64,000 nucleotides of DNA. It comes from Carboxydocellales bacterium. GTDB taxonomy: Bacteria; Bacillota; GCA-003054495; Carboxydocellales; JAJZTU01. Under the pieces are notes generated by a model. It searched no databases and was not told the DNA's origin. It saw only the letters and a list, made by a program, of their open reading frames with translations. Position numbers and translations under genes: made by a program. Position 1 is the stretch's first letter, and the number at the start of each line of letters is the position of its first letter. The stretch lies in contig JBAQLS010000046.1 of the NCBI GenBank assembly GCA_049302075.1, forward strand, positions 148,436 to 212,435, in the 5' to 3' direction. Below are positions 21,431-58,067 of the stretch, in pieces.

Positions 21431-21553
21431 CAGGCTGTTGAAATTCCCCGTCCAGCGTTGTCAGCAGAATCGCCAAGATCCTCAACGTACAGCCAGTACG
21501 CCTGCGGCCTTGGCGATTCTGCTTCCTAGCTGGACGAGTTTTTCAACAGCCTG
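21431..21553 (-). repeat. Near-palindromic structured repeat, family 2, copy A (~123 nt, inverted relative to the other copies)
   Basis: caggctgttgaaattccccgtccagc...ccaaggccgcaggcgtactggctgtacgttgagg...gctggacgagtttttcaacagcctg. Shares core and ends with copies at 32684, 47316, 51871 and 57943. Flanked by a 16-bp direct repeat aaacatagaattttac (21414-21429 and 21594-21609). Confidence 0.7.
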
Positions 21554-21607
21554 CCTGGGGTCATAGCTTTCCGCCTAGCTCCGCTAGACGCATTGAAACA
21601 TAGAATT

Positions 21608-23572
21608 TTACTTTTCCTTGGCACGCTCCATAACTGCCTTCCAGATTCTCGCTGGATAGGACCCACCCACAACTCCCTGTAGATAATGCTTCCGGTCAGT
21701 CCGGTCATAACCCACCCAGACTGCAGCAACTAACTCCGGGGTATAGCCAACAAACCAGGCATCCTTATTACCCTTAATGCCCCGAAACTCCGGGGTGTTC
21801 GGTAGTTGGGTAGTTCCTGTCTTGCCGGCCGCCGAAAAATTATACCTAGCTGTTATAATAGCGTCTTGCCCAGCACCTCGCCCAATGGCTTGCCCATATA
21901 CTGCTGCCTCCACCGTCAATCTGGCCTCACGTCCGGTGCCGGAGTTTACTGCTTCCGCTAATAAACCGGTCATCTTTTGGGCGGTATCCTCAGTTATCAC
22001 CTGTTCCACCCTCAGTTTTTTCCCTTTAATCTCCAGTCCATTACTACCCACCAACCGTATAATTGTAGTTGGTTCTCGGTATATTCCCTCAGCCCCAAAA
22101 GTACCAAAGGCAGCCGCCATTTGATAAGGAGAAACTCCCCCTGTTAAACCCCCCAGAGCCAAAGACAGGTTGCGGTCCCCTTCCACTAAGGGCAAGCCTA
22201 GTCCAACTCCCATCCGAAAACCGGAGTTTACCCCAATCTCCTTCAACAGCTTAACTGCATATACATTGACCGAATTACGCAAAGCAAAGGTCATATCCAT
22301 GGAGCCATAACTATGACCCCCATAATTCTGAGGTCTGTAACCCCCTAAAGCGGTAATGCTATCATCCAGACGGTAACTGACCGGGTAGCCTTTTTCTAAG
22401 GCTGGAGCATAGACTACCAATGGTTTAATGGTCGAACCCGGTTGACGTTTTAACTGAGTTGCCCGGTTAAAAGCCCGGACTGTAGGATAATCCCGCCCTC
22501 CCACTAAAGCCCGTACTTCCCCTAGATGATAGTCCACCACTGCAATCGCCCCCTGAACCTGGACTCCATTCACACCGGCTGGAAACTGGCTGCCATCTGC
22601 CAGCACTGCCTCTGCCGCTCCTTGCACTTTGGGATCCAGGGAGGAATAAATGCTGTAACCTCCGGTATATAGCTGTTCCTCTTCAATCCCATATCTATCC
22701 CGGGCTTCCCGGATAACCTGATCCACAAAATAGGGAAACCGGTAACCCGCCAAATTCCTCAGCCCCACCACCTGAACGGCCGCGGCCCTGGCCTTATCTG
22801 CATCCATTGGAGGAATCAGCCCATAACCCTCCATTAAGGTGAGCACCAAATTCCTTCTGATTGCAGCAGCCTGCATATTGCGGTAGGGTGAATAAAGTCC
22901 CGGATTTTTGGCAATCCCGGCCAACAAAGCTGCCTCTTCCGGTTTTAGCTTGTCTACATCTTTGCCATAATAAAGCCGGGAAGCTGCTTGCACTCCATAA
23001 ACCCCGTGACCAAAATAAATCCGGTTTAAATACAGCCCTAGAATTTCGTCCTTAGAATATCTTAACTCTAGCTCTCTAGCCATCACTAACTCTTTGAGCT
23101 TTCGTTGCCAGGTCTTCTCCTTTGAAAGAAAAGCATTGCGGGCTAACTGCTGCGTGATGGTGCTCCCGCCTTGGGACAGTTCTTCCTCCCGAATATTTAC
23201 TAGTGCAGCCCTGGCAATCCCAATTACATCTAAGCCGGGATGGTCATAAAAGCGAACATCTTCCACCGCAAGAAAGGCATCTTTTAACTGTTGAGGAATA
23301 TGGTCATACTTAACAACCACCCTATTTTCCGGGCCATGAAGCTGGGCGATTAACATCCCCGTCCGGTCATAAACCATGGTGTTACTAGCCGCCACCAAGT
23401 CCCCATTAACCCATTGGTGTTTGTACTGCTCATAAAAAGCCATCCCCAGCCCTGTAACCATGGCCCCAACTGCCAACAGGCTAAAGATAATCAACAGTAT
23501 CAAGCCTAGGACCAGCTGCTTAAAGGATACTTTACTCCGCTGTGACTTGTGCCCCATCTGTCGTTGCCCCAT
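21608..23572 (-). CDS. Class A penicillin-binding protein (PBP1A-type, bifunctional glycosyltransferase/transpeptidase)
   Basis: GT51 motifs (EDVRFYDHPGLD, RQGGSTITQQL), then transpeptidase STIK...KTGTT. The ORF runs to 23728 through the family-1 repeat. The ATG at 23572 (MGQRQMGHKSQRS... then TM) is the likelier start. Confidence 0.85.
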   Translation of the reverse strand: MGQRQMGHKSQRSKVSFKQLVLGLILLIIFSLLAVGAMVTGLGMAFYEQYKHQWVNGDLVAASNTMVYDRTGMLIAQLHGPENRVVVKYDHIPQQLKDAFLAVEDVRFYDHPGLDVIGIARAALVNIREEELSQGGSTITQQLARNAFLSKEKTWQRKLKELVMARELELRYSKDEILGLYLNRIYFGHGVYGVQAASRLYYGKDVDKLKPEEAALLAGIAKNPGLYSPYRNMQAAAIRRNLVLTLMEGYGLIPPMDADKARAAAVQVVGLRNLAGYRFPYFVDQVIREARDRYGIEEEQLYTGGYSIYSSLDPKVQGAAEAVLADGSQFPAGVNGVQVQGAIAVVDYHLGEVRALVGGRDYPTVRAFNRATQLKRQPGSTIKPLVVYAPALEKGYPVSYRLDDSITALGGYRPQNYGGHSYGSMDMTFALRNSVNVYAVKLLKEIGVNSGFRMGVGLGLPLVEGDRNLSLALGGLTGGVSPYQMAAAFGTFGAEGIYREPTTIIRLVGSNGLEIKGKKLRVEQVITEDTAQKMTGLLAEAVNSGTGREARLTVEAAVYGQAIGRGAGQDAIITARYNFSAAGKTGTTQLPNTPEFRGIKGNKDAWFVGYTPELVAAVWVGYDRTDRKHYLQGVVGGSYPARIWKAVMERAKEK

Positions 23573-23645
23573 TTCCCATGTATGTTCAAGCTTGATTTTA
23601 TCATAAAAAAACAACCAAGACATGTTCTGAGTTGAAAAACATTGA

Positions 23646-23869
23646 CCGGTCGGATACAGGTCCCGGCTGGGTGCTCTTAGTTCCATGCTTAGCGGCTCTA
23701 AGCTGGTTTGGATAATAAAATTGACCAACCTCGACGATACGGCATCCTTGCCTAGGCGTTGAGGTTTCCGACGTCCTTGTCGGAAAGGTCGATTTTATTA
23801 CCCAACTGCGCTAAGAGCCGCTACGGCACTCCACCATGAGCACCCCACCGGAACCGGTATCCGACCTGG
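23646..23869 (+). repeat. Structured interspersed repeat, family 1, copy 2
   Basis: Same architecture as 315-538. Outer stem ggtcggatac / gtatccgacc. Inner hairpin stems carry two G-U pairs when read on the + strand. Confidence 0.7.
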
Positions 23870-23920
23870 CGGGTTTTTGGGGAGATGGCGGGGTGGGGTA
23901 TTTAGATAAAGCCGGGGTTG

Positions 23921-26413
23921 CTATGGCCGCCCATGACGGCGTCCTTTGTCCTTATCTCTATCATTAGGAAGATTGCCATCTGTGCTGCCTGAGAGGGGTG
24001 GTGTAGTATCGCTAGTAATGCCGCCAGGCGACCCCAAAGGATCTGTAACTCCTGTAGGGTCGGTGGAACCTGAGTCATTGGGAACTTTTCCTCCTGTTGG
24101 ACCTCCGGCCCCACTACCGTGGCTGACTATATCCCCAGCATTACCAGTACCTCCATCGGTTCCCGAATTACCTGGACTTCCTGGGCTACCAGGACTCCCT
24201 ATTGTTCCCGTATTGCCTGAATTACCTGTATTACCTGTATTACCTGAATTAACCGTATTGCCGGTACTGCCATTTGCCCCGGTAGTGTTTTGCTCCCCGG
24301 TGGGTTTTCCTCCCCCTGGGGTCTGCTGACCTTTGCTCCCAGGCGAAACGCCCTCCCCCTGGCCAGAGTGCCTAGCCAGTTCTTCCGGTGATAGTGAATC
24401 CCAGACCCGAACATCCTTACGGTAGATGAATTTCCCTTGATACTTGGGGAAACTCTTTTTAGGTACGCCGGCTAAGGCTTGTTCCATCACCTTTTTCCAT
24501 AGCACTGCCGGATATGAACCGCCAACTACGCCCCGCAGGTAATGGGCTGTATCGGTGCGGTCATAGCCAATCCATACCGCTGCAACCAGTTCGGGTGTAT
24601 AACCGACAAACCAAGCATCCTTATTACCGCTGATTTTTTTAAATTCCGGGCTGTCGGGAAGCTGGGTGGTACCCGTCTTTCCGGCCACGGGTCGATCCAA
24701 CCTGGCCCTGGTCCCTGTTCCTCCTCGGACTACCTCTTGGAGCATTTCCGTCATTACTGCAGCGGTATGGGAATGCATTACTTTATTTACTTTGGGCAGG
24801 TCGTCAAAAACCACCGCCCCGGAGTAATCAGTAATCTTCACTATGGCGTGAGGCTCCACTTGAATTCCCTGGTTGGCAAAAGCCCCATAGGCTGAGGCCA
24901 TTTGCAGCGGTGAAACCCCGTGGGTCAGTCCGCCTAGAGCCAAGGGCAGTACTTTGTCCGAGGGTACCAGTTCAAAGCCTAACTTGCAGGCAAAATTATA
25001 GCCTGTTTCCAGCCCAATTTTAGCTAATAATTTTACCGCACAAATATTAACTGAATACTTCAGCGCTGAAGCCATGGTCATATACCCTCGAGAACCACCG
25101 CTATAGTTTTCCGGCGCATATTTCCCAAAACGAACGGGAAAATCATCCAGCAGCATATAAGGAGGGTACTTGGCCTCCAAAGCTGGTCCGTACACTGCTA
25201 TCGGCTTAAAGGTTGACCCAGGCTGACGCCGGGAGTCTACCGCCCGGTTAAAGCCCCGCTTGACATCATAGCCTCTGCCCCCTACTAAAGCTTTGATTTC
25301 TCCATTATTATAATCCAACACAGCAACCGCGCCCTGTACTGGCAGCTTATCTGGGCCTGTGGATGGAAAATTATAATTGTACGACCACACCGTCTGAGCA
25401 GCCTGCTGAACTTTGCTATCCAGAGCGGTGTAAATCCTCAACCCCCCGCCGTAAACCTCTTTTTCACTGATTCCCAGGCGCTTCCCGGCCTCATCTACCA
25501 CAGCATCCACATAATAAGGATACTCATAGGGATTGTTCAGCGGGGTGGAAGCTAATTTGCAGCCATCCAGTTTAGCCTGCTCTTCCTGCTTCTTAGTAAT
25601 AAACTCGTTTTCCTCCATTAGACTGAGGACAGTCTCCATCCTTTGCCTGGCCTCCTCCGGCTCCCGAAAGGGGGAATACCGATTAGGCGCTTTTAGTAAA
25701 CCAGCTAAAACAGCAGCCTCCGGCAGGTTTAAGTCCTTGGCAGTTTTGCCAAAATAAGTCCGGGCGGCAGCCTCCAAGCCATAAGCCCCATGGCCAAAAT
25801 AAATGCGGGTCAGGTACATATTTAAAATCTCTTCCTTGGAATACTTCTTCTCTAGTTCCAGAGCCAAAAGAACTTCTTTGATTTTGCGATTATAGGTTTT
25901 CTCCGGGGTTAGCAGGGAGTTTTTCACCAACTGCTGGGTAATAGTACTGGCCCCTTCGACAATCCGCCCCTCCCGGAAGTTAGCTACCATGGCTCTAACC
26001 ACAGCTTCCAGATCAACCCCCATATGATGATAAAAGCGCACATCCTCAGTAGCTACAAAAGCATCCTTCACCACCTGGGGCAGCTCCCCAGGCAATGGCA
26101 GGCGGTCCTCCACCCCTTTAAGTATGGCAATGACCCTGCCATCCCGATCATAGATGATGGTATTAAAAGCTGTAGCCAAGTCCGCCGCAGTCCAAGCCGG
26201 AGTGGCCGGAAGGGCCATGGCTACTACTATGTATCCTAAGAAAAAAGCAAGCAGCAGAGTAAAGAAAAAAACGCCCGTCCCCCCCGATAGCATAAACCTT
26301 TTACCCTTTTTGTCCTTTGACTTATCCGTTTGCTTAACCGTTGACGTATCTGTCGACTTACCTGTTGGCTTATCTGTTGGCTTATCTGTTGGCTTATCTG
26401 TTGGTTCAACCAT
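23921..26413 (-). CDS. Class A penicillin-binding protein (second PBP1A paralog) with Lys/Thr/Asp-rich N-terminal tail and Gly/Ser/Thr/Asn-rich C-terminal tail
   Basis: GT51 (EDVRFYHHMGVD, GASTITQQL) plus transpeptidase (STFK, KTGTT). ATG at 26413 follows an AAGGGGTGAG SD. 12-bp tandem repeats at ~26344-26403 encode (PTDK)n. The ~190-aa C-terminal tail is low complexity. Confidence 0.85.
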   Translation of the reverse strand: MVEPTDKPTDKPTDKPTGKSTDTSTVKQTDKSKDKKGKRFMLSGGTGVFFFTLLLAFFLGYIVVAMALPATPAWTAADLATAFNTIIYDRDGRVIAILKGVEDRLPLPGELPQVVKDAFVATEDVRFYHHMGVDLEAVVRAMVANFREGRIVEGASTITQQLVKNSLLTPEKTYNRKIKEVLLALELEKKYSKEEILNMYLTRIYFGHGAYGLEAAARTYFGKTAKDLNLPEAAVLAGLLKAPNRYSPFREPEEARQRMETVLSLMEENEFITKKQEEQAKLDGCKLASTPLNNPYEYPYYVDAVVDEAGKRLGISEKEVYGGGLRIYTALDSKVQQAAQTVWSYNYNFPSTGPDKLPVQGAVAVLDYNNGEIKALVGGRGYDVKRGFNRAVDSRRQPGSTFKPIAVYGPALEAKYPPYMLLDDFPVRFGKYAPENYSGGSRGYMTMASALKYSVNICAVKLLAKIGLETGYNFACKLGFELVPSDKVLPLALGGLTHGVSPLQMASAYGAFANQGIQVEPHAIVKITDYSGAVVFDDLPKVNKVMHSHTAAVMTEMLQEVVRGGTGTRARLDRPVAGKTGTTQLPDSPEFKKISGNKDAWFVGYTPELVAAVWIGYDRTDTAHYLRGVVGGSYPAVLWKKVMEQALAGVPKKSFPKYQGKFIYRKDVRVWDSLSPEELARHSGQGEGVSPGSKGQQTPGGGKPTGEQNTTGANGSTGNTVNSGNTGNTGNSGNTGTIGSPGSPGSPGNSGTDGGTGNAGDIVSHGSGAGGPTGGKVPNDSGSTDPTGVTDPLGSPGGITSDTTPPLSGSTDGNLPNDRDKDKGRRHGRP

Positions 26414-26810
26414 TAGCTCACCCCTTATCCCGGTGCACAAAAAAAACCGGACAATAATGAGCATAACAGTAAATATCTGTAAAATCAAACATAATTATCC
26501 TGCAAAAAACACAAAAAAAAGCAACCCTCACCAGTTCCCCCTTTTTTCCAAGCCATAGCCTTCCCTTTCAAAAATCGCTTATGAAAAAGCATATCCCAAA
26601 TTTAGATAAAAACGCAACCCCTCTAGCCTATTGTTATAGTCATCAAAATGCCAGCTCAAAACTAATGATAAAACTGTCTCTTAAGGTAGTTATTAAAAAT
26701 TTCTCCAGAAGTTTTCTCACAACCCGTAAAGGTTGTGTTTGCGCTTTTCAACCCTTATGGGTTGTCCTATTATAATTAAATAGTCATGTTCGAACAGTCC
26801 GTCCCCCTCC

Positions 26811-27902
26811 CTAGCCAACTATAACTTTCCTGGCCAGCATATCCACAAAGGCCTCAACTCTAGTTTTCATGCCCACATCAGAGGAATTCTCATCCACCAC
26901 CAGATTTAGCACCGGTATCCCGCAAGTGGCGCTAACTTTAGGCAAAATACCTTTGGCCACAATCTCCGGCATACAGGTCAGGGGCAAAATCTGAATCACC
27001 CCGTCATAACCCTGCGCAGCATAGTTTACCGTATTGCCCACAGAATCCAGTCCGTGTCCCCCCACCGTTGAGCCTAAAAAAGGCCGAGCCGCCCGAAGCA
27101 GACCCTTCCCGTAGCTGGTGCGTTCTAAGCCAATCAGATTAGTGCTTACCCAGTGGGATAGGTAAATTGACCGGGTCACTTCCACCCCCAGCTCACCTAA
27201 AAACTCTTCAATATGGGCATTACATACCGGTTCCAACAGCATATAAATATCCCCTACCAGACCAATCTTGAGGGGCCTGGCTTTATTTTTAGATTGGCCT
27301 TTTTCCGCCTTCAGCAGGTGGTTCAAAGCTCCCAAAGCCTCTGCCCGGCATTGCTCTACATCCCCGCTGGATTTGGCTTCCGCTAAGCTCTCCAGAAACT
27401 CTTGATAAATCCGGCTAGTTGCCCCACGCTCTTGCTCCCATGGCCTAACCAGGTGAGTTTCCCCTTCCACCCCATCCATAGCCTTTAGCATGGACCAGCC
27501 TAAGCGAATAGCCTGTCCCACCTCCGGCCAAGACTTGCCTCCAGCCTGTTGACGCAGGTGGTCAATATTAGCCTTAAAATTGCCCTTTTCCAAAATGAGC
27601 ATCGGGAAATTATAGCCCAAGTCTTGGAGAATAGCCTGATGCAGCCTGCCAAAATAGCCGAACCGGCAAGGCCCGGAGCCTCCCAGCATGACAATGGTAT
27701 CTGCTCCTAGCTCAAAGGCCTGGAGATAGTTGCCTAAATTAATCTTAAAAGGCAGACAAGCTCCCTCCCGGGCATACTTGCTGCCTAAGGCGATAGTTTG
27801 CTGATTAGTCTTGGGGGGGAGAATAACCTCCAACTCAAGTGCTTCAAACATAGCTTTTAAGGCAATGGCCAGATTGCCCATGTGGGGAAAGGTGATTTTC
27901 AT
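26811..27902 (-). CDS. DUF2229 'CoA-substrate-specific enzyme activase' domain protein (solitary paralog of 33746-34843)
   Basis: MKITFPHMGNLAIALKAMFEALELEVILPP...GGSGPCRFGYFGRL is a clear paralog of MKVTFPYMGTSHIAFKHLVNNLGHQALVPP...GGNGPCRAGIYGML. Confidence 0.6.
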   Translation of the reverse strand: MKITFPHMGNLAIALKAMFEALELEVILPPKTNQQTIALGSKYAREGACLPFKINLGNYLQAFELGADTIVMLGGSGPCRFGYFGRLHQAILQDLGYNFPMLILEKGNFKANIDHLRQQAGGKSWPEVGQAIRLGWSMLKAMDGVEGETHLVRPWEQERGATSRIYQEFLESLAEAKSSGDVEQCRAEALGALNHLLKAEKGQSKNKARPLKIGLVGDIYMLLEPVCNAHIEEFLGELGVEVTRSIYLSHWVSTNLIGLERTSYGKGLLRAARPFLGSTVGGHGLDSVGNTVNYAAQGYDGVIQILPLTCMPEIVAKGILPKVSATCGIPVLNLVVDENSSDVGMKTRVEAFVDMLARKVIVG

Positions 27903-27977
27903 GGTATTCCTCCGGTTATAAGGGGTCTACCATGTAATATTACCCAAGGGGGTGGGGGGTTAAACTTGGTAAATAAA

Positions 27978-28020
27978 AATCCAGAAAAAAGAAAACGCCA
28001 AACACTTTTCGTTTGGCGTT
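27978..28020 (-). terminator. Rho-independent terminator at the left edge of the AT-rich island
   Basis: aacgccaaac / gtttggcgtt stem with a T-run on the minus strand (A-run 27981-27990 on +). Confidence 0.6.
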
Positions 28021-28102: not shown

Positions 28103-28492
28103 CTAGGTAAGCTGAAGTTTTTGATGTACAAAATTCATCACATGGTCAGCATCAACAACAGCTTTTTGCATATCGCTTTCTAAAATTTCAATCTCAAAAG
28201 GATATCTTGGCTGTACACCATATGGCGTAAGATTTACACAAGATTGACTTATCTCATCAAAGGTTTCATCAATATCGGCACACATTTTACATATTAATCT
28301 TAAGTCGTGAGTCCTAGGTGGCTCTACATCTTGATGTATAAGATAGCCTTTTAGCACTTTCTCTGCTGCTTGCTCACAGTGATAGCAAATGATTTCTATG
28401 GGAACCGGGCGCATATCTAAGAGATACTTTGCACAGCTGATATCTTTGTTTGCAAAATCAAGCCATTCTTTGACTATGTTGATTTTGTCCAT
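28103..28492 (-). CDS. HEPN-domain protein (toxin component of HEPN/MNT pair)
   Basis: 129 aa, all-helical. AEKVLKGYLIHQDVEPPRTHDLRLI fits the HEPN R-x(4-6)-H region. Overlaps the upstream MNT gene by 35 nt. Confidence 0.8.
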   Translation of the reverse strand: MDKINIVKEWLDFANKDISCAKYLLDMRPVPIEIICYHCEQAAEKVLKGYLIHQDVEPPRTHDLRLICKMCADIDETFDEISQSCVNLTPYGVQPRYPFEIEILESDMQKAVVDADHVMNFVHQKLQLT

Positions 28493-28805
28493 GCAGCATC
28501 ACCCCATCTCTGGCAACTGTTCTTTCGATAGTAGGCAACAGCTTGCGCTGATGAAAATTACTGGCTCTGCTTACGAGGATATCAATTGGCTTCTTTTGTT
28601 CTTTGTAGATGGCACTGCCAATGAGCTGCATGGCTTCAATTGGACGAATGCCGCCATCAGGAATCACTATATAAAGGTCGAAATCACTATCTTCTGAGGG
28701 CGTACCATAAGCATAGGAGCCAAAGAGGTATATCGCATCGGCTTCAACTGTATTCAGAATCGTTTGCTTAATATTTTCCAACTCATTGCTCGTTTGGATA
28801 TTCAT
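28458..28805 (-). CDS. Minimal nucleotidyltransferase (MNT; antitoxin component of HEPN/MNT pair)
   Basis: IYLFGSYAYGTPSEDSDFDLYIVIP is the GS...DxD polymerase-beta-type nucleotidyltransferase motif. Confidence 0.85.
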   Translation of the reverse strand: MNIQTSNELENIKQTILNTVEADAIYLFGSYAYGTPSEDSDFDLYIVIPDGGIRPIEAMQLIGSAIYKEQKKPIDILVSRASNFHQRKLLPTIERTVARDGVMLHGQNQHSQRMA

Positions 28806-32683: not shown

Positions 32684-32806
32684 TAGGCTGTTGAAAAACC
32701 CGTCCAGCTAGGAAAAATCATTGCCAAGGCCGCAGGTGTACTGGCCGTACATCGAGGACCTTGGCAATGATTTTGACAACGCTGGATGGGGAATTTCAAC
32801 AGCCGT
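32684..32806 (+). repeat. Near-palindromic structured repeat, family 2, copy B
   Basis: taggctgttgaaaaacccgtccagc...ccaaggccgcaggtgtactggccgtacatcgagg...gctggatggggaatttcaacagcc. The middle stem keeps pairing with a different sequence (aaatcattgccaagg / ccttggcaatgattt). Preceded by a (gtgaac)x3 microrepeat. Confidence 0.7.
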
Positions 32807-32807
32807 A

Positions 32808-33761
32808 CTAGATGGTCTCCCATTTTCCGCATCTATCCCCCCACCGGGCCAGCAGCTGTTTATCCACCGAAATATTAATTACCTCGCACAGGTTGGAGCA
32901 CCCCTGGCACTCAAAGCTGCTAGCCCGGTAATCCATATCACTTACCGCAAAGCCCTTAAAGGCCGTCTCCTCCTTATGCTTAACCTCTTCTCTGGCTAAC
33001 AAAGCTACTCCGATGGCCCCCATTACATTAAAATGCTCCGGGATGATGATCTCCTTGCCCAACGCCTTCTCAAAAGCCGCCCTAATCCCCTGGTTGGCAG
33101 CCACCCCACCCTGGAACACTACCGGGGCCAAAACCTCCTTGCCTTTCCCCACATTGTTTAAGTAATTCCGCACCAAGGCTTCACACAGCCCGGCAATAAT
33201 ATCTTCCGTATTATGACCCATCTGTTGTTTATGGATCATATCCGACTCGGCAAATACCGAACACCGCCCGGCAATCCGCACCGGGGTTTTGGACTGTAAC
33301 GCCATATCCCCGAATTCCTCAATAGGAATATTCAGCCGGGAGGCCACTTGATCCAGGAATGACCCTGTTCCTGCCGCACATACCGTATTCATGGCAAAAT
33401 CCGTTACCACCCCGTGGCGCAGCAGAATAATCTTGGAATCCTGTCCCCCGATTTCTAGAATAGTCTGGGCCTGGGGCACCAGATGGGTAGCAGCCACCGC
33501 ATGAGCGGTAATTTCATTTTTGACTACATCCGCTCCCACCATTACGCCGGTAAGGTGGCGGGCGCTGCCGGTAGTCCCTACCCCACAAATCTGAAAATCC
33601 GCAGGCAAAAGGTTAGCCATTTCCCCCAGACCCTGTTTCACAGCCATAATGGGCTGGCCTTTAGTGCGGATATAAATACCTTGCAGTACCTTCCCCTGAG
33701 CATCTATCACCACCACATTGGTACTAACTGAGCCTACATCAATTCCTAAATAGCCGTCCAT
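32808..33761 (-). CDS. BadF/BadG/BcrA/BcrD-type ATPase (acyl-CoA dehydratase-activase family)
   Basis: LGIDVGSVSTNVVVID is the ASKHA phosphate-1 motif, GVGTTGS the phosphate-2 motif, plus conserved Cys pairs. 317 aa. Confidence 0.8.
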   Translation of the reverse strand: MDGYLGIDVGSVSTNVVVIDAQGKVLQGIYIRTKGQPIMAVKQGLGEMANLLPADFQICGVGTTGSARHLTGVMVGADVVKNEITAHAVAATHLVPQAQTILEIGGQDSKIILLRHGVVTDFAMNTVCAAGTGSFLDQVASRLNIPIEEFGDMALQSKTPVRIAGRCSVFAESDMIHKQQMGHNTEDIIAGLCEALVRNYLNNVGKGKEVLAPVVFQGGVAANQGIRAAFEKALGKEIIIPEHFNVMGAIGVALLAREEVKHKEETAFKGFAVSDMDYRASSFECQGCSNLCEVINISVDKQLLARWGDRCGKWETI

Positions 33762-46045: not shown

Positions 46046-46270
46046 CCGGTCGGTTGCCTAACCCGGCGGGGTGCTCTTAGCTCCATACCGTGCGGCTCTA
46101 AGCACAGATGGCCTAATAAAATTGACCGACCTGGACAATACGGCATCCTTGCCTAGGTGTCCAGGTTGCCGCCTTCCGTGGCGGCAAGGTCAATTTTATT
46201 GGCCATCTGCGCTTAGAGCCGCTACGGTACTCCACCAGGAGCACCCCACCGGGCCAGGCAACCGACCTGG
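46046..46270 (+). repeat. Structured interspersed repeat, family 1, copy 3
   Basis: Same architecture as copies 1 and 2. Outer stem ggtcggttgcc / ggcaaccgacc differs in sequence from the other copies but still pairs. Middle stem gcggctctaagc / gcttagagccgc. Inner hairpin loop atacggcatccttgcctagg is shared with copy 2. Confidence 0.7.
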
Positions 46271-47180: not shown

Positions 47181-47315
47181 TACCCGTCCCTCCTCTCTAG
47201 AAAGTCTGGTCAATGGTATAGTATGAAGGACTAGAGCAAAGGGTGTGTATAAACAGTAGTATAAACATAGGATATCCCGCATAAAGTTGCCATGGCGGGG
47301 AATTTTCCGACCCTA

Positions 47316-47441
47316 GGCAGGCTGTTGAAATACCCGTCTGACTGGAAGCAGAATCACCCCTATGCCCATGGCGTACTGCTGTACGTCGAAGACATGAGGG
47401 TGATTTTGGTGACAACGCTAGACGGGGATTCAGCAGCCTGC
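47316..47441 (+). repeat. Near-palindromic structured repeat, family 2, copy C (most diverged)
   Basis: aggcaggctgttgaaatacccgtctgac...gcgtactgctgtacgtcgaag...gacggggattcagcagcctgc. Immediately 3' of the bshA stop. Confidence 0.6.
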
Positions 47442-48554
47442 TCCGCATACCCGCCGATAGAAGTCCTCATACTGGGCAACAACCTTATCTACATGAAACT
47501 CGTTAATTGCTCGCTCCCGGGCAGCTAAGCCCATTTTGTTATGAAGATCCCGGTCCTGCAGTAAGTTAACCGCCAAACTAGTCATCCCTTCAATATCACC
47601 GATGGCGGCTAGGTATCCTGTAACCCCGTTCACCACAACCTCTGGGACACCACCAGTTTTGGTGGCAATGACCGGAACCTCACAGGCCATGGCCTCCAAA
47701 GCCGACAAGCCAAAGCTTTCCTTCTCTGAGGGTAGTAGAAACAAATCCGCTTGGGACAGAATTTGCACCACAGCTTCCTGCTTGCCCAGAAAATGCACCC
47801 TGTGGGCTATCCCTAGTTCTTGAGCCAGATGTTGGGCCGCCAGACGGTCTGGCCCATCACCAACCAGCAGTAATTGGCTGGACAACTGGCGGTTAATTCC
47901 GGCGAAAATCCTTACTACATCCAGTACCCGCTTTAACGGGCGAAAATTGGAGGTGTGCACAATTATCTTGTCCTCCTGTTTGCTAAATACACCTCGGCAA
48001 CAAGGCTGGTAATTCCGATTATATACCGCAGGATCAATGAAGTTATAGATTGTTTCCACTTCCTTAATCCCAAAAAGCTCTCTTGTTTCCCTACTAAGGT
48101 TTTCTGAAACTGCGGTAACTCCATCACTTTCTTCCAGACAAAACTTAGTAATATCATAAAACTGCCGGTCATTACTTAGAATGGTGATATCTGTACCGTG
48201 CAAGGTGGTCACAACGGGTATGCCTTGTTCCCGGAGCATCTGCTTGGCTAGGTATCCACTCACCGCATGGGGAATAGCATAATGGGCATGCAGGATATCC
48301 AGGTTATGGGTCCGTACCACATCAGCAATTGTACTAGCCAGAGCAATCGAATAGGGCGGGAATTTAAACAAAGGATAGTCAAAAACCTCAACCTCGTGGA
48401 GAAAAAGGTTCCCGTGAAACCCCCGCAACCGAAAAGGCCGTTCATAACTAATAAAGTGTACCTCATGTCCACGGTCAGCCAGGTGCTCCCCCAGTTCGGT
48501 GGCTACCACCCCGCTGCCTCCGTAGGAAGGATAACATATCATGCCTATTTTCAT
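47430..48554 (-). CDS. bshA: GT4 glycosyltransferase BshA (N-acetyl-alpha-D-glucosaminyl L-malate synthase)
   Basis: MKIGMICYPSYGGSGVVATELGEHLADRGHEVHFIS is a BshA-type GT4 N-terminus. Operon with bshB1 and bshC. Confidence 0.75.
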   Translation of the reverse strand: MKIGMICYPSYGGSGVVATELGEHLADRGHEVHFISYERPFRLRGFHGNLFLHEVEVFDYPLFKFPPYSIALASTIADVVRTHNLDILHAHYAIPHAVSGYLAKQMLREQGIPVVTTLHGTDITILSNDRQFYDITKFCLEESDGVTAVSENLSRETRELFGIKEVETIYNFIDPAVYNRNYQPCCRGVFSKQEDKIIVHTSNFRPLKRVLDVVRIFAGINRQLSSQLLLVGDGPDRLAAQHLAQELGIAHRVHFLGKQEAVVQILSQADLFLLPSEKESFGLSALEAMACEVPVIATKTGGVPEVVVNGVTGYLAAIGDIEGMTSLAVNLLQDRDLHNKMGLAARERAINEFHVDKVVAQYEDFYRRVCGAGC

Positions 48555-51247: not shown

Positions 51248-51272
51248 GCTATGGTATTTTACTTACCAGAGC

Positions 51273-51725
51273 CTAGTCAATATGAATTTTTACACCCCGG
51301 CTGCTTTTCCCCCCCGATTTAGGTAGTTTGATTTCCAAAAGACCGTCCTTAAATTTGGCTTGGGATTTTTCGGGGTTAACCGGCTCATTTAGTGGCACAC
51401 TTCGGATAAAAGCACCGGCTCGTTGTTCCTGGAGCAAGTATTCCTGGCTTTCCTGCCTGGTTTCTTCCGCGAAGGAACCTATAATCGTGACCAAATTTTC
51501 CTCAACATGAATATCTAGATTTTTGATGTCAATGCCTGGCAAATGCGCTTTAACTATAATCTCCCTACCCGGATCCTCTACTTCGATACTGAAATTACTG
51601 TTTAATCCGAACAAACTGCTTTCAGAAAAATCACCAAAGGTAAAGAGTTCCTCAAAAAGGGCATCCATTTTTTTGCGGATCACAGACATGTGCTTAGCAG
51701 AATCAAAAGGAATCAATTCTCCCAT
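51273..51725 (-). CDS. Hsp20/alpha-crystallin family small heat-shock protein
   Basis: Alpha-crystallin domain (DIHVEENLVTIIG...FKDGLLEIKLPK). 150 aa. Confidence 0.9.
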   Translation of the reverse strand: MGELIPFDSAKHMSVIRKKMDALFEELFTFGDFSESSLFGLNSNFSIEVEDPGREIIVKAHLPGIDIKNLDIHVEENLVTIIGSFAEETRQESQEYLLQEQRAGAFIRSVPLNEPVNPEKSQAKFKDGLLEIKLPKSGGKSSRGVKIHID

Positions 51726-51870
51726 AATATCACCTCATCAAGTACAAACACCTGCGACTACTATTATCTTCCCTCTTCTATATAATATTCAGCTGCCACC
51801 AATTTGCTCTCCACAAAAACAGAACACCCTGATAGGTGTTTCCAGTTTGTTAATAAACACTCTTCTTCTC

Positions 51871-52004
51871 CTGACCCGAGTAGGCTGATTAAAAAACCCG
51901 CATGGCAGGTCGCCATCTGCGACAAGGCCGCAGGCGTACTCTTTGTGCATCGAGGACCTTGTCACAACTGGCGACAAAGCTAGGTGGGGAATTTTAACAG
52001 CCTA
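51871..52004 (+). repeat. Near-palindromic structured repeat, family 2, copy D
   Basis: taggctgattaaaaaacccg...ccgcaggcgtactctttgtgcatcgaggacc...ggggaattttaacagcc. Immediately 3' of the ABC ATPase stop. Confidence 0.7.
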
Positions 52005-52007
52005 AAC

Positions 52008-52790
52008 CTATATTTGAAATTCTAACTCCTGCCGATGCACCAACTCAAACTCCTGAAAAACCTTGTCCCTAATCGTCGTAAAGTCATATCCCGTCCGTAC
52101 CCTAGGCCGTCCAATAGGTACCTCCAACACCCGCTTAACCCGCCCGGGATGTGGAGACATGAGGACAATTCGGTCAGCCAGGTAGACCGCCTCATCAATA
52201 TCATGGGTAACAAAAACAATGGTCTTATGCTTTTCCTGCCAGATTCGGGAAATCTCCTCCTGCATCTTATATCTGGTCATGGCATCTAAGGCCCCAAAGG
52301 GTTCATCCATAAAAATAATTTCCGGATCTACTGCCAGTGCCCTGGCAATGGCCACTCGCTGCTGCATTCCTCCCGAGAGTTCATTAGGATGATGGCTCTC
52401 GAACTTCTCTAAACCAACCAGGCTAATATACTCCCGGGCAATCTCCTGGCGTTTCCGCCGGGGAACCCCCTGAACCTCCAGCCCGTATTCCACATTACCC
52501 AGAACTGTCCGCCAGGGAAATAAGCCATAGCTTTGAAACAAGGTTAAATGTTTGGGGTCCGGGCCGGTAACCTGCTCTCCGTCTATTAGGATATTACCCC
52601 CGCTGGGCTGGTCAAAACCGGCGGCCATATTGAGCAAGGTTGTTTTTCCACAACCGCTGGGACCCAAAAGACAGACAAATTCACCTTCGCGAATTTCTAG
52701 GTCTACGCTAGATAACACTTCCTGCCAGGTCCCATCTTTATTTTGAAAAGATTTTTCCACCCCTTGAATAACTATCTTGGCATTGCCCAT
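52008..52790 (-). CDS. ABC transporter ATP-binding protein (NitT/TauT, SsuB-like)
   Basis: Walker A (GPSGCGKTT), signature (LSGGMQQR), Walker B (IIFMDEP). Confidence 0.9.
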   Translation of the reverse strand: MGNAKIVIQGVEKSFQNKDGTWQEVLSSVDLEIREGEFVCLLGPSGCGKTTLLNMAAGFDQPSGGNILIDGEQVTGPDPKHLTLFQSYGLFPWRTVLGNVEYGLEVQGVPRRKRQEIAREYISLVGLEKFESHHPNELSGGMQQRVAIARALAVDPEIIFMDEPFGALDAMTRYKMQEEISRIWQEKHKTIVFVTHDIDEAVYLADRIVLMSPHPGRVKRVLEVPIGRPRVRTGYDFTTIRDKVFQEFELVHRQELEFQI

Positions 52791-52811
52791 GGTTTGACTC
52801 CCTCACTCTCA

Positions 52812-53594
52812 CTAATGGTTTTTGGCCACAAAACCCCAGTTTCTTTTTACCCATTTTTCAGCTAACCCCATTAATCTGTCCAGAGCCAGGCCTAGCAACC
52901 CAATCAGAATCATCCCCAGGATTATCCAGTCTGTGCGCAGGAAATTGCGCGAATCCACAATTAAATATCCCAGTCCGGACTGAGCTCCCAGCATTTCTCC
53001 GGCTACCAGGTGGATCCACCCCGTACCCAAAGCGATATGTAAGCCTACCATGATCTGGGGAAAAGCTGCTGGGACCACCACTTTCAGGAGAATATCCCTT
53101 TCCCTCGTCCGAAAGTTCCTAGCTACCTTAATATAGACGGCGTCCACATTCCGCACCGCACTCACTGTAGCTAATAAGCAAGGAAAAAAGACAGAAAGAA
53201 AGATGATAAATATTGCCGGCATATCACCTATGCCAAACCACAACACCGCAAGGGGAAACCAGGCAATAGGCGAGATGGGCCGCAAAATTTGGATAAAGGG
53301 ATCCACCGCTGTTAGTACTCTAGTATACCAGCCAAAAATTAGTCCCAGGGTAACACCACAAGTAACAGCTAGCAAATAGGCAACTCCAAAGCGGTACAAA
53401 CTTATCCCGATATGCTCCAGTAAAATACCCTTTTCCCAGAGTTCCCATCCACCTTTGGCTACCTGCACCGGACCTGGTAGATCTTCCGGGGTATAGATAC
53501 CTAACACTGCAACCATATGCCAAAGGCCTATCAACACCCCCAAAGTCAACAGCGGAGTGATATACTTTTCTCCCTTAAATCCCTGACCCCGCAA
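52812..53594 (-). CDS. ABC transporter permease (NitT/TauT, SsuC-like)
   Basis: 6-TM BPD-type permease. Confidence 0.85.
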   Translation of the reverse strand: MRGQGFKGEKYITPLLTLGVLIGLWHMVAVLGIYTPEDLPGPVQVAKGGWELWEKGILLEHIGISLYRFGVAYLLAVTCGVTLGLIFGWYTRVLTAVDPFIQILRPISPIAWFPLAVLWFGIGDMPAIFIIFLSVFFPCLLATVSAVRNVDAVYIKVARNFRTRERDILLKVVVPAAFPQIMVGLHIALGTGWIHLVAGEMLGAQSGLGYLIVDSRNFLRTDWIILGMILIGLLGLALDRLMGLAEKWVKRNWGFVAKNH

Positions 53595-53609
53595 GTTAAG
53601 CCCCCCTTC

Positions 53610-54623
53610 CTAGATTTTGTATGCTTTCCGGGCAAAGCTGTCATCCAGATAGGCGGACAGTTCCACAGGCTGCTGGGCAATGCCGAATTTGAGCATATAG
53701 TCTTGAGTTGCTTTCAGGTCCTCCATGGTGGGCAGCAGGTTATCAAAGGTTACCCGATCCTTAGGATTATTCAGCACATGTAAGATAACCTCAGACTTTT
53801 GTCCTAGATATTTAGTAGAGAGGTCGGCCGCTTGGGCACGATTGCCCTCGATAAACTGGCCTGCAGCAGCTAAACTGTCTACCAGTTCCTGAACCGCCTC
53901 AGCATTTTTAGCTATTATATCCTCCCGCACATTCAGCATGCAGCAAATGTGGTTAGGCCAAATATCCTTGGACAGCATCAGTACCTTGCCAACCTTTTGT
54001 AATTCAGCCTGACCCCCAAAGGGTTCCGCTACTATAAAGCCGCCAATTTGCTTGCTGGCAATGGCCTGCACCATTTCCGGCGGGGCCATATCAATTATCT
54101 TCAGGTCTTTATTGGCATCAATCCCTTTTTCCGAGAGGATTTTGCGCAGGAGAATATTATGGGTAGAGAATTTGCTGGGAATAGCAATTGTTTTGCCCTT
54201 CAGATCAGCGATTGCATTAATTTCATTGCCAACTCCGACGGTGATGGCACTCCCATTGCGATGTCCTAAGAGCACTCCTTTAATGGGCACACCTTTCTGC
54301 CTCAAAGTTAAGCTAATCGGAGTAAGGGCAAAGGCTGCTTCAATCTTCCCTGCTTTCAAGGCTTCCGCCAATTCCGGCCAACTGGAAAACTTAACCGGCT
54401 CTAAATTTAACTTTTGAAATTTAGTTTGGGCATGGCTGATCACAGTAAGGTGATCAGTTATTGGTAAATACCCTAGCTTGAGGGTAGGAACTCCGCTTGC
54501 TTGTCCAGCGGTCTTACTGGCATCACCTGAACCGCAGCCAACCAACCCTGTGGTCAAGGCACTTCCTAGCAGCAGGCCTCCTCCGGTAAGTTTGATAAAA
54601 TCTCTTCTGCTGATGTTTTTCAT
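53610..54623 (-). CDS. ABC substrate-binding lipoprotein (NMT1/THI5-like, SsuA/TauA family)
   Basis: Lipobox (LVGCGSG) and periplasmic-binding fold. First gene of the transporter operon. Confidence 0.8.
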   Translation of the reverse strand: MKNISRRDFIKLTGGGLLLGSALTTGLVGCGSGDASKTAGQASGVPTLKLGYLPITDHLTVISHAQTKFQKLNLEPVKFSSWPELAEALKAGKIEAAFALTPISLTLRQKGVPIKGVLLGHRNGSAITVGVGNEINAIADLKGKTIAIPSKFSTHNILLRKILSEKGIDANKDLKIIDMAPPEMVQAIASKQIGGFIVAEPFGGQAELQKVGKVLMLSKDIWPNHICCMLNVREDIIAKNAEAVQELVDSLAAAGQFIEGNRAQAADLSTKYLGQKSEVILHVLNNPKDRVTFDNLLPTMEDLKATQDYMLKFGIAQQPVELSAYLDDSFARKAYKI

Positions 54624-54761
54624 TCAATCTCCCCCACATTATCCAATTCTTGGTTTTTACACTGTGTTAATAAATTCACCCGATGTATTAACTCCCCACT
54701 TGCTATTAACTTTAGACTGTTCATTAACTCCATATTTGCTATTATCTTTATTACTGAGTAA

Positions 54762-56729
54762 TTAACTCCACCCCAGGCCTTTCCGCTTGCGTTGGATATG
54801 CATTTTAATGGTCTGGGCAGCCAATTTGGGATAAGGCTCGGTATAGATTTTGCCTCCCAAGAGTTTTAACACCCCATCATCACCGGCCAGGAAGTCTACA
54901 ATATCATTACTTCCCCGATCCATTTCCTCCGGGTTATCCTCCTTGGGCCTAGGAACCGGTACCGGCACTGGAGCTGGGAATCCCACCAGATTGCTTACCC
55001 CATGAGTCAGAAAGCTTAAGCCTTGACCCACAGTTTTTTCATTGCCCGGCTCAGGTCCTACAAACATAAAGGGCATATCCTTGATTGAAACTCCTGCCTC
55101 TTCAGCCAACTCAATAAACAATCTTAGGCTTCTGGTGTTGTCCACACAACCCCCTACTGCTAGCACGGGAGGAATTGCTAAGCTTTGGCAAACCGCTCCC
55201 AGTCCTTCTCCGGCCCAGTCAGCAGCCTCAGGCGAACACAACCCGGCATTGAATAAGGCGTGGGAGCAGCAGCCGGTGGTGGTGACCAGGATGTCTGCCT
55301 CAATGAGCTTGCGGACAATGGTCACATGATTATATTCATAAGGCACCTTCGGATTGTTGCAGCCAACCACGGTAGCAATACCTTTTATTTTGCCTTTTTT
55401 CAGCAGTTCCAAAAGCTTTGCCCGTCCCTCAAAGGTCTCCAGCAGAGCTTCTAAACTCCACCCCCCCATAGCTTTAGTTACTTCCTGGGGTATATGCATT
55501 TTGGAACGGTCCCGCTTGGCAAAGGCTTCCACCGCCTTTTTAGCCACCAGTAGTGCATCCTCATCCAGCGTCTCCGGATGCTCAGCATCAAAGGGGATGT
55601 GCAGAGCCCCGGCAATCCGGTTGGAATTACAGGTTGTAATAACCTCTGTCCCAAAGCAGTCTGCCACGGCTTTCAGCCCCGGAATAACGCATTGCATATC
55701 GACAATTACAGCATCCACCGCACCAGTACCTATAGCCAACTCCTGTCCAAGAATATTGGTGACTGTAGGGACACCATATCTGGCCATAAGCTCATCCCCA
55801 GTACAACACATTCCTGCCACCACAATACCTTTAGCACCGGCATCCCTAGCTAATTTTTGTATTTCCGGGGTTTTAATTTTCTCCAGAATTACTTCGGCCA
55901 TTACCGGGGAGTGCCCATGGACCAAAATATTCACTTGATCCGCCTTCATTACCCCATAGTTTACCGTGGTCAGGATAGGTCGGGGCAATCCAAACAGAAT
56001 TTCCGTAGCCATGGATGAACCAAACAGGGTACTGTAGCAATAGGCTAGGGCAGACCGCAATTCTTGGGCAGCTAAGGCTGTCCAGTCGGAGCAGCTTCCC
56101 AAGGTTGTCATGTGCAGGGACTCCATTATTTCATAAGCCGCCGACCGGGGCAGCACCCCAAGATTAGCCCACACCTGCCTGCGTTCCAAGGGGGCGTACG
56201 CCTCTAACATTTTGATCGGCTGGTCAAACATCCGGTTTAAGTCCTCTAACAGCACCAGGGCCACTTCTTTAGCTACTGTCAAGAATTCCTTACCGGCAGT
56301 GTCCAAGTGGAACTTTTCAGCCAGTTCCCAAACCCTGCTTTCCCCTTTGAGCGGAATATTAATCTTGCCATCGGCAACAGCGATAATACTCATAATACAT
56401 TCATGGGCATGCCGGGCATGTCCGGCCATACCTGCTACCAGGGCCCGGAGAATATTGCCTAGTACCATGGAATTCAGATCCTTGCCGCAAATCCCCCTAG
56501 GACTCTTGGGGCCTATCCGGCAGGGCCCCCACTGGCACATCCTGCAACAAAGTCCCCGCAGCCCAAAACCGCACTGGGGTTGCTGAGCTTCAAACCTATC
56601 CAGAAAGGTTTCCACTCCCAGTTTATCTAAACGGCTGATTATATCTTTAGTGGCCCGGTTGGGGGTAAGTGCTAAAACATCCTCTTTTCCGGGCATCTCC
56701 GCATTTAAGAATGGATATTGATATTTCAA
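54762..56729 (-). CDS. cooS: Anaerobic carbon-monoxide dehydrogenase catalytic subunit CooS
   Basis: N-terminal CGFGLRGLCCRMCQWGPCRI...GICG cluster-binding motifs characteristic of Ni-CODH. 655 aa. Confidence 0.85.
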   Translation of the reverse strand: MKYQYPFLNAEMPGKEDVLALTPNRATKDIISRLDKLGVETFLDRFEAQQPQCGFGLRGLCCRMCQWGPCRIGPKSPRGICGKDLNSMVLGNILRALVAGMAGHARHAHECIMSIIAVADGKINIPLKGESRVWELAEKFHLDTAGKEFLTVAKEVALVLLEDLNRMFDQPIKMLEAYAPLERRQVWANLGVLPRSAAYEIMESLHMTTLGSCSDWTALAAQELRSALAYCYSTLFGSSMATEILFGLPRPILTTVNYGVMKADQVNILVHGHSPVMAEVILEKIKTPEIQKLARDAGAKGIVVAGMCCTGDELMARYGVPTVTNILGQELAIGTGAVDAVIVDMQCVIPGLKAVADCFGTEVITTCNSNRIAGALHIPFDAEHPETLDEDALLVAKKAVEAFAKRDRSKMHIPQEVTKAMGGWSLEALLETFEGRAKLLELLKKGKIKGIATVVGCNNPKVPYEYNHVTIVRKLIEADILVTTTGCCSHALFNAGLCSPEAADWAGEGLGAVCQSLAIPPVLAVGGCVDNTRSLRLFIELAEEAGVSIKDMPFMFVGPEPGNEKTVGQGLSFLTHGVSNLVGFPAPVPVPVPRPKEDNPEEMDRGSNDIVDFLAGDDGVLKLLGGKIYTEPYPKLAAQTIKMHIQRKRKGLGWS

Positions 56730-56795
56730 GCCTGTCTCCTCCTTTGGTTGTCCTTTAATTGTCCTATGGTTGTCCGGTGCATATCCGGCGCTTGT

Positions 56796-57710
56796 CTATT
56801 CAAATAAACCGGTGGACAGGTAGCGTTCCCCCGTATCGGGCAGAATGACCACAATCTTTTTCCCCTTATTTTCAGGCCGTTTAGCTATCTCTAGGGCTGC
56901 ATAAGCAGCTGCGCCCGCAGAAATTCCCACTAGTAATCCTTCGGTTCGAGCTAATTGTCTTGCCGTAGCAAAAGCCTGTTCACTCTTCACCTGAAAAATC
57001 TCGTCTATCACTTCCACGTTGACAATCTCGGGTACAAACCCAGCCCCAATTCCCTGAATCTTATGAGGCCCGGCCAAACCACCCGACAATACCGGTGAAT
57101 CAACAGGCTCTACAGCCACAATTTTTACCCCCGATTTCTTTGCCTTTAGCACTTCACCCACCCCGGTCAAAGTTCCCCCGGTACCTACACCGGCTACGAA
57201 TATATCCACCTGACCGTCTGTATCCTCCCAGATTTCCAGAGCAGTAGTTTTTCTATGTATCTCCGGATTAGCCAAGTTGGCAAACTGCTGGGGAATGAAA
57301 GAGTCAGTTATCTCCTGGCCCAGTGCCTCAGCCTTCCGAATAGCCCCTTTCATTCCCTCTGCTCCAGGAGTCAACACCAGTTCCGCCCCATAAGCCTTTA
57401 ACAAGTTGCGCCGCTCCATACTCATACTATCCGGCATGGTGAGAATTAACTTATAACCCCGGGCTGCCGCTACCATCGCTAGGGCGATACCGGTATTACC
57501 GCTAGTGGGCTCAATAATCACTGCACTAGGTTTTAACAGTCCTTGTTCTTCAGCTGCCGCAATCATGTTTAAACCAATGCGATCCTTCACACTCCCACCA
57601 GGATTAAAAGCTTCCAATTTAGCCAACACCTCAGCCTCACTACCGTTGACTTTTGTTAACCGGAGCAGCGGTGTCCTACCAATTAGCTCAGTAATGTTAC
57701 TATAAATCAT
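56796..57710 (-). CDS. cysK: Cysteine synthase (O-acetylserine sulfhydrylase) CysK/CysM
   Basis: PLP-lysine region (GGSVKDR), SGNTG and GTGGT motifs. ATG at 57710 follows a GGTGAGGAGGAG SD. The ORF is open to 57752. Confidence 0.9.
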
Positions 57711-57942
57711 AATTTTCTCCTCCTCACCTATTGTTATATTTTGAGGTAACACCTCGCTTATGGTTGTTTAAGGACAATTCCAGTAAAGCCCGCAGGGCAT
57801 ACTCCCCTTTTGCCGATATTTTCAATCCCTGCACCATCCCCATTAAGTCTATCAACTTAGTATGGTTTCGGTTTTATTTTAATTCAGTCCCTCTAATTCG
57901 TCAAGCATTATTTTTATAATTCCACACGGAATACTCGGATTT

Positions 57943-58067
57943 GCAGACTGTTAAAAAACCCGTCTAGCACGAAGACAGCTGTCCCAAGGTCGCAGGCGTA
58001 CTCTTTGTACGTCGAGGACCTTGGCGATTCTGGCGACAAAGCTAGGCGGGGAATTTCAACAGCCTGC
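57943..58067 (+). repeat. Near-palindromic structured repeat, family 2, copy E
   Basis: gcagactgttaaaaaacccgtctagc...ccaaggtcgcaggcgtactctttgtacgtcgaggaccttgg...gctaggcggggaatttcaacagcctgc. Abuts the ylbF-like stop. Confidence 0.7.

Follow-up and report, generated by a model that had tools for sequence, protein, structure and literature searches.

Hairpin repeats at gene stops in a Carboxydocellales genome are probably miniature elements with IS5-family ends

The stretch of DNA analysed here (the window; 64,000 nucleotides of a Carboxydocellales bacterium, GenBank assembly GCA_049302075.1, contig JBAQLS010000046.1, positions 148,436 to 212,435 of the forward strand) contains five copies of a hairpin repeat of about 125 nt, referred to here as copies A to E, which lie at or near the ends of genes for a penicillin-binding protein (PBP1A), a BadF/BcrA-type ATPase, BshA, an ABC ATPase and a YlbF-like protein. 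Our preferred interpretation, to which we assign a probability of roughly 0.8, is that these repeats are non-coding MITEs (miniature transposable elements with inverted repeats) that bear the terminal inverted repeats of an IS5-family insertion sequence. The unit is an imperfect palindrome of 121–125 nt with terminal inverted repeats CAGGCTGTTGAAA...TTTCAACAGCCTG (left end, IRL; right end, IRR), and a leader of 28–42 nt, made up of degenerate end modules, usually lies on its IRL side. The five copies had been noticed in an earlier inspection of the letters alone (the sequence-only reading), and their number and coordinates hold essentially as given there, except that the hairpin of copy D begins at 51881 and not at 51871; the extra bases before 51881 are part of the leader of that copy. 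The copies align over approximately 125 nt with a mean column identity of 75%, and a profile search with a hidden Markov model built from them recovers exactly these five, and no further copy, in the 64-kb window. The canonical strand is the plus strand for copies B to E and the minus strand for copy A.

Copy A is the best-preserved copy and the sole one with its leader side towards the upstream gene. Its hairpin core (21431–21553, minus strand; IRL at 21553, IRR at 21431; −85.9 kcal/mol) is preceded by a 42-nt leader (21554–21595, minus strand), a degenerate version of the 3′ arm ending in GACCCCAGG. The 16-nt direct repeat that had been proposed to flank this copy as a target-site duplication does appear to be one, with the correction that it encloses 164 nt (21432–21595), hairpin and leader together, and that it contains a stop codon: the distal repeat (21416–21431) reads AAACATAGAATTTTAC on the plus strand, and the gene-proximal repeat (21596–21611) includes the stop codon of the PBP1A gene (21608–21610). 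For copy B (hairpin 32684–32807, plus strand), the BadF/BcrA-type ATPase gene has its stop (32808–32810) 3 nt away from the IRR end. In copy C (hairpin 47318–47440, plus strand), the IRR codes for the last three codons and the TGA of bshA (stop 47430–47432). The 34-nt leader of this copy (47284–47317, plus strand) consists of a partial 3′-arm copy followed by GACCCTAGG, and a 7-nt target duplication, CCGCATA, stands at 47277–47283 on the distal side, where it is followed by displaced ancestral bshA codons (G I S), and at 47443–47449 within bshA.

Copy D (hairpin 51881–52004, plus strand) lies with its IRR end at a distance of 3 nt from the ABC ATPase stop (52008–52010); its 38-nt leader (51843–51880, plus strand) begins with a degenerate IRL, CAGTTTGTTAATAAAC, and adjoins a native terminator hairpin at 51822–51841. 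In copy E (hairpin 57944–58067, plus strand), the distance from the IRR end to the stop of the ylbF-like gene (58069–58071) is 1 nt. A putative 28-nt leader of this copy (57916–57943, plus strand) is bounded by the 8-nt repeat TTATTTTT (57908–57915 and 58069–58076), which includes the stop codon and, being of low complexity, is weaker evidence for a duplication. The middle helix of copy E is unpaired and its arms combine those of two subfamilies; the copy looks recombinant. A promoter-like site for the next gene lies directly after it. The earlier statement that every copy sits within a few nucleotides of a gene stop thus stands for B, D and E (1–3 nt) and for C, which overlaps the bshA stop, but not for A, whose hairpin is about 54 nt from the PBP1A stop. 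Under a model of uniform insertion over intergenic DNA, the proximity of four of the five copies to a stop (≤6 nt) has a probability of about 5 × 10−6.

The decisive evidence on the identity of the repeats comes from a search of metagenome contigs with the 5′ end pattern YAGRCTGTTRAAAAACCCGT, in which eight variants were allowed. This returned 90 matches in 89 contigs, 86 of them the single variant CAGGCTGTTGAAAAACCCGT. Pairing of the matches with the inverted end TTTCAACAGCCTG yielded 16 elements of more than 1 kb, all but one of which measure 1.2–1.53 kb; their flanks are perfect 4-bp repeats in 12 cases, mostly CTAG, and agree at three of four positions in the other four. These longer elements encode proteins of 360–390 amino acids with the domains DUF772 and DDE_Tnp_1, and their transposase scores 269.9 bits on the NCBIfam model IS5_4 (cutoff 140) and 206.8 bits on the IS1182 model (cutoff 270). 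The closest transposases in annotated plasmids carry the label IS5 family and, in one case, ‘IS5-like element ISMch8 family’; an ISMch8-family element on plasmid pCMU01 (1494 bp) has at both ends CAGGCTGTTGAA, which is the first 12 nt of the window repeat. Over 12–20 nt, the termini of the window repeats (CAGGCTGTTGAAAAACCCGT) are identical to the ends of the 1.2–1.5 kb insertion sequences, the 20-nt 5′ end being the IRL of the elements that encode IS5_4 transposases, and the interiors of the matched metagenome elements show no relationship to the window element. Both in size and in their 4-bp repeats, the longer elements fit the IS5 group, which a table of captured elements lists with direct repeats of 4–6 bp (PMC3281130, Table 2). 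It is because their ends match those of transposase-encoding IS5-family elements that we regard the window repeats as MITEs.

Other properties of the repeats were examined in the window and in sequence collections. The repeats are short, non-coding and multicopy (5 in 64 kb and 8 full copies in other contigs, 13 in total, plus several partial copies). Pfam scans of 49 of the proteins predicted for the window, including the products of all genes flanking the five copies, detected no transposase. Rfam contains no matching family at gathering or permissive thresholds, with only generic microRNA-hairpin models appearing (32 bits against a threshold of 140); the family was not found in the literature searched, where the end sequence used as text gave unrelated primer matches only, and a plasmid BLAST search with the element end gave chance-level matches only. 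A match to an already described MITE family had been named beforehand as the outcome that would speak against a REP-like regulatory element: by its ends the repeat belongs to a known type of MITE, although the family itself was found in neither Rfam nor the literature searched.

Ends of this sequence also delimit further families of short hairpins, whose lengths are 131, about 140 and about 264 nt and which have 4-bp duplications. One of these, a hairpin MITE family of 139–150 nt from sediment and soil metagenomes (loci L017, L023, L026, L029, L030, L035–L037, L052, L062, L079, L086, L089, L094 and L098 of our set), has the same 20-nt end and 4-bp duplications such as TCAA, TTCA, TTTA and ATAA. 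Its 5′ flank is conserved (TGTCAATnnTCAA; on the other strand TTGA..ATTGACA), which suggests a specific, promoter-like target. Further short families with these ends are 131 nt (L020, L042 and L076) and 263–265 nt (L061, L070 and L087) in length. The fact that several short families share their ends indicates that one IS5-type terminal repeat gave rise to several unrelated MITE families.

Comparison with relatives establishes that the elements are inserted DNA. In the genome GCA_027420795.1 (L005; BshA 79% identical), the gene order is the same from cysteine synthase to the BadF-type ATPase gene, and no copy occurs in the 21 kb compared, sites C and D included; at both sites, small terminator hairpins stand directly after the stop codons. 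A second relative (L004; BshA 84% identical) likewise has site C without the element. At copy C the end of bshA, GCA GGC TGC TGA, derives from the terminal repeat, and hairpin and leader lie between two copies of the 7-nt repeat, TATGCGG when read with the gene. Joining the sequence across this repeat restores ...RRVCGIS, in agreement with ...RRICGISG and ...RRICGISE of relatives that lack the element, and the duplication of copy C is thereby validated. The Joint Genome Institute (JGI) contig of a 91%-identical relative (L101) ends with ...GCAGGCTGTTGA at the same bshA position; its end, ...TGCGGAGCAGGCTGTTGA, falls inside the terminal repeat at exactly that position. BshA ends in GAGC in both carriers of the element; in relatives that lack it, the C terminus is GISG, GISE or GING. 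By the bshA data, therefore, two close relatives share this insertion, and four others at a greater distance do not have it.

The family is rare and confined to a narrow lineage: it was found only in the source Carboxydocellales metagenome-assembled genome (MAG), in a second MAG and in three metagenome samples that are related. In a collection of species-representative genomes, from which the source MAG is absent, the 3′ end pattern was found only in three small contigs of the MAG CAZKEO01 (‘uncultured Eubacteriales’). Peptides predicted across the element matched three proteins among 5.8 billion clusters in one frame and gave three convincing matches among 1.84 billion representatives in a second frame; the contigs come from JGI samples 3300037814, 3300040965 and 3300040967, and one of these samples also contains a BshA 91% identical to that of the window. 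Viral contigs scanned for the element gave 0 matches. A scan of metagenome contigs with the 3′ pattern also gave 0, which is a weak negative, since that collection lacks some JGI contigs and L008–L010 match the pattern exactly.

The association with stop codons recurs in independent contigs. The IRR lies 6 nt from the stop of groEL (L008), 2 nt from that of an unnamed gene (L009) and 2 nt from that of a peptidase S8 gene (L102), and the stop falls inside the repeat at gpsA (L010), at a gene for a 245-amino-acid protein (L103-1) and at two partial copies (L002 and L003); at L001 the element follows the terminator of a tRNA-SeC gene. The IRR is the end that the upstream gene, or RNA gene, meets first at 12 of 13 loci. 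In five cases (copy C, L010, L103-1 and the partial copies L002 and L003), the terminal repeat itself supplies the stop, the frame GCA GGC TGT TGA (or TAA) adding the three-residue tail AGC. Among full-length insertion sequences of the wider superfamily, 15 of 72 junctions lie at the end of a long open reading frame, a modest stop adjacency. CTAG is not depleted in the window (195 observed, 241 expected). We consider it doubtful that the element is a MITE aimed at stops or at the foot of terminators by a targeting mode as yet not described for IS5-type elements, with non-canonical duplications of 7–22 bp, and acting as a portable stop and terminator module.

The near-palindromic form that had been described is evident in the predicted fold: each copy forms one long hairpin, with an energy between −59 and −86 kcal/mol and a z-score between −4.9 and −12.3, and no shuffled sequence (0 of 200) folds as well as the real copies. 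For all five window copies the canonical strand is more stable than its complement, by 3–13 kcal/mol, and it is the better folder in 9 of 10 trimmed cores. The consensus structure of 10 full copies has four helices and 49 pairs. The claim that the internal stem varies while keeping its pairing is likewise supported: 94.1% of cells are standard pairs, compared with 86.4% when partners are shuffled and 30–42% when they are slid. Two-sided changes occur in 19 of the 49 pairs (10.5 ± 1.8 in shuffled alignments, 0 of 500 reaching 19; 4–7 in slid alignments), 12 of them in the variable middle helix. The arms are not exact complements, and asymmetric internal loops are present in all copies; their conservation argues that the palindrome is not merely regenerated by fold-back copying. 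Pairwise identity among copies is 64–90%. Window copy A is nearest to the L010 copy from another sample (90%), closer than to any copy of its own genome, and two subfamilies coexist in the window and elsewhere. Both facts indicate that pairing was kept along propagating master lineages.

The direct repeats that could be identified are placed not at the two inverted repeats but around the hairpin and the leader on its IRL side. They measure 16 nt in copy A (leader 42 nt, PBP1A stop in the repeat), 7 nt in copy C (leader 34 nt, supported by the BshA reconstruction), 8 nt in copy E (leader 28 nt, stop in the low-complexity repeat) and 22 nt at L001 (leader 36 nt), where the repeat is a whole terminator palindrome. 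At that locus, the tRNA-SeC gene occupies 2915–3012 and the palindrome stands on each side of the MITE (3031–3055 and 3214–3236) as a perfect 22-nt repeat. Leaders are of two types: a partial 3′-arm copy followed by CCGACCCCAGG (A, C, L010 and L103-1), and degenerate IRL modules of about 36 nt, single or double (D, L001, L002, L008, L102 and L103-2). The outermost degenerate IRL adjoins a local G+C-rich hairpin in three of these (D, L001 and L103-2). There are also copies reduced to their 3′ part (L002, 882–934; L003, 440–470). The leaders and long repeats may be debris of nested insertions or products of a non-standard reaction.

If the repeats are MITEs, they would be mobilised in trans by a DDE transposase of the IS5 family encoded elsewhere in the genome, and the hairpin would be kept because master copies need it to propagate, possibly because it brings together the ends of a very short element or acts as single-stranded DNA. 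Insertion would take place at or just before stops, mostly with the IRR towards the gene, through either a target preference or strong filtering. The inserted element would then become the start of the 3′ untranslated region of the gene, its terminal repeat in one frame giving a stop after three codons (...AGC*). It may well serve as an intrinsic terminator or a protective 3′-end hairpin, or strengthen one, which would be a by-product that the host tolerates or exploits. In the common orientation, the G+C-rich helix 2 (CCCCGUCUAGC/GCUAGACGGG) is followed by U5–6 on the transcript, although the enclosed hairpin of about 95 nt is far longer than those of usual terminators. In 9 of 10 copies the end of the reverse strand is GGGUUUUU(U)CAAC, whereas the canonical strand ends GGGGAAUUUC; against the U5–6 of the reverse strand, the canonical strand has only AAUUUC. 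No other terminator-like site was found downstream of C or E. This arrangement of a hairpin and U5–6 on the transcript makes a predicted role in termination or at the 3′ end plausible; for other MITEs, functions of this kind have been suggested (PMC10969869, PMC2229807). We give such a function a moderate probability and regard it as a by-product, not as the reason for the existence of the family.

Several observations weigh against the reading of the repeats as IS5-type MITEs with an incidental 3′-end role. The duplications are of 7, 8, 16 and 22 nt and not the 4 bp of the IS5 group, the leaders vary in length and sequence, and several copies have no duplication at all; the family-typical 4-bp YTAR target duplication is not seen around the window elements, while the full-length relatives do have 4-bp duplications. 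The idea that a preference for YTAR targets leads to the stop association was tested and rejected: CTAG is not rare in the window, and only about 10% of the YTAR sites in non-coding DNA span a stop codon. On the canonical strand, G–U pairs number 21 and A–C mismatches 9 (one invariant pair excluded). Both this G–U excess and the better fold are properties of the strand that as a rule is not transcribed together with the gene, and they argue against selection on an mRNA hairpin, as do the broken helix in copy E and the terminator that site D retains. The native terminator at 51822–51841 persists directly after the unit at site D, so that a terminator role is not needed there.

These observations bear on the alternatives. 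The copies could be domesticated cis-acting RNA elements that host selection keeps as terminators or 3′-end stabilisers, in the manner of REP/BIME, ERIC or SPRITE sequences, with compensatory changes arising in place. The shared orientation at 12 of 13 loci with U5–6 after the hairpin in the direction of transcription, the direct adjacency to stops, the pairing held at identities of only 64–90%, the lack of a further terminator-like site after C and E and the small terminators at the same places in a relative are all consistent with this, but the G–U excess on the wrong strand, the lost middle-helix pairing of copy E, the inverted copy A and the native terminator still present after D are not, and the closeness of copy A to a copy from another sample points to master lineages and not to evolution in place; we regard domestication as possible but unlikely. 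A free-standing small RNA gene, which had been suggested, or an antisense RNA from the canonical strand is very improbable. The better fold of that strand and its G–U pairs would suit it, but no conserved promoter was found, promoter-like matches in and around the copies are no commoner than in shuffled sequence, Rfam gives no match, the loop and middle helix vary freely, and the terminal inverted repeats, target duplication and empty sites are those of an insertion element; nothing supports a stand-alone RNA. The same inspection had proposed a REP/BIME-like role. Elements of that kind, moved by a RAYT (an HUH Y1 enzyme), or integron attC-like sites would share with the window repeats a palindromic, extragenic position beside gene 3′ ends, the proposed terminator or mRNA-stabilising roles, pairing maintained by correlated changes (as in the variable middle stem of attC) and conserved sequence on one flank only. 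However, REPs measure 20–40 nt, bear a GTAG/CGTC head (PMC3733652) and owe their movement to HUH enzymes, which leave no target duplication, whereas the window repeats are 121–125 nt, have ends that read CAGGCTG, lack such a head, have duplications and match a DDE-type IS5-family element at their ends. Integron attC sites were rejected, because the box polarity, 5′-GTTGAAA...TTTCAAC-3′, is the reverse of RYYYAAC...GTTRRRY and the copies lie 4.5–15 kb apart among syntenic housekeeping genes and not in a cassette array. Pfam scans of 49 of the window's predicted proteins found neither an integrase nor a RAYT/Y1 gene, and both origins are scarcely credible.

A further question is whether the elements move by a non-canonical route, whether one-ended, IS1182-like or by strand transfer at structured DNA near gene ends, in which the IRR is fixed and the other end variable. 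IS1182 elements have direct repeats of 0–60 bp in ISfinder. Direct repeats of 7–22 nt combined with variable leaders and a precise IRR junction, copies cut down to their 3′ part (L002 and L003), the duplication of an entire terminator palindrome at L001, the position of the outer degenerate IRL beside local hairpins (D, L001 and L103-2) and the 206.8 bits that the related full-length transposase also scores on the IS1182 model (below its cutoff of 270) speak for such a route. Yet there are four duplications only, two of them short or of low complexity, the related short families with the same ends have ordinary 4-bp duplications, and the leaders are explicable as debris of earlier nested insertions. 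We consider a non-canonical route rather unlikely.

Set beside IS5-family MITEs (ISMch8-like), the window family has an identical terminal inverted repeat over 12–20 nt, is small, without coding capacity, dispersed in multiple copies and polymorphic for presence, and has a target duplication and sister short families with shared ends. It differs in its duplications of 7–22 nt in place of 4-bp YTAR, in the leader of degenerate end modules inside the duplication and in its extreme bias to stops and to one orientation; nor was a cognate transposase seen in this lineage, where the scans covered 49 proteins of the window. The ERIC/IRU sequences of enterobacteria, imperfect palindromes of 127 bp, are alike in size, in a long stem–loop transcript, in MITE-like ends and in occupying transcribed intergenic DNA, but are unrelated in sequence and host and have no IS5-type ends; ERIC has 7-bp terminal inverted repeats with TA at the termini and orientation-dependent effects on mRNA (PMC2229807). 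Small interspersed repeats also occur in the Gram-positive Streptococcus pneumoniae (SPRITE, BOX and RUP; SPRITE being terminator-like), but their sequences are unrelated to the window family. RUP is linked to IS630, which has a TA target. To our knowledge, stop-codon targeting has not been reported for SPRITE, BOX or RUP. The pneumococcal repeats are modular and mosaic and insert into one another (PMC10969869), an organisation that resembles the nested end modules of the window family.

Several other features of the window were recorded. The second repeat family present is TwoAYGGAY RNA (RF01731), with three copies on the minus strand (346–504, 23678–23836 and 46078–46237; 47.8, 42.7 and 56.7 bits); a whole-window scan at the gathering threshold gave the first copy only, and the third passes when its region is scanned alone. 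A c-di-GMP-I riboswitch (62212–62298, minus strand, 67 bits) lies upstream of a gene for a methyl-accepting chemotaxis protein (60072–61760). Tandem paralogues of class A penicillin-binding protein genes (21608–23728 and 23921–26488) contain a stretch with 74% DNA identity and have a TwoAYGGAY RNA between them. Overlapping genes for HEPN and nucleotidyltransferase proteins (28103–28805, minus strand) resemble a toxin–antitoxin module.

The repeats are best understood as transposon debris and not as a new class of regulatory RNA, and a single end sequence of IS5 type has given rise, in different environments, to several hairpin MITE families that are unrelated to one another. Spurious proteins of 54–82 amino acids are already being predicted across these elements by gene callers, a mis-annotation that their identification prevents. 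The stop association, the stops supplied by the repeat and the atypical duplications together make a small concrete system in which to study how MITEs choose gene ends and whether they come to serve as terminators, and the stop-codon targeting and long duplications are the parts worth specialist attention. The findings refine known biology and introduce no new principle.

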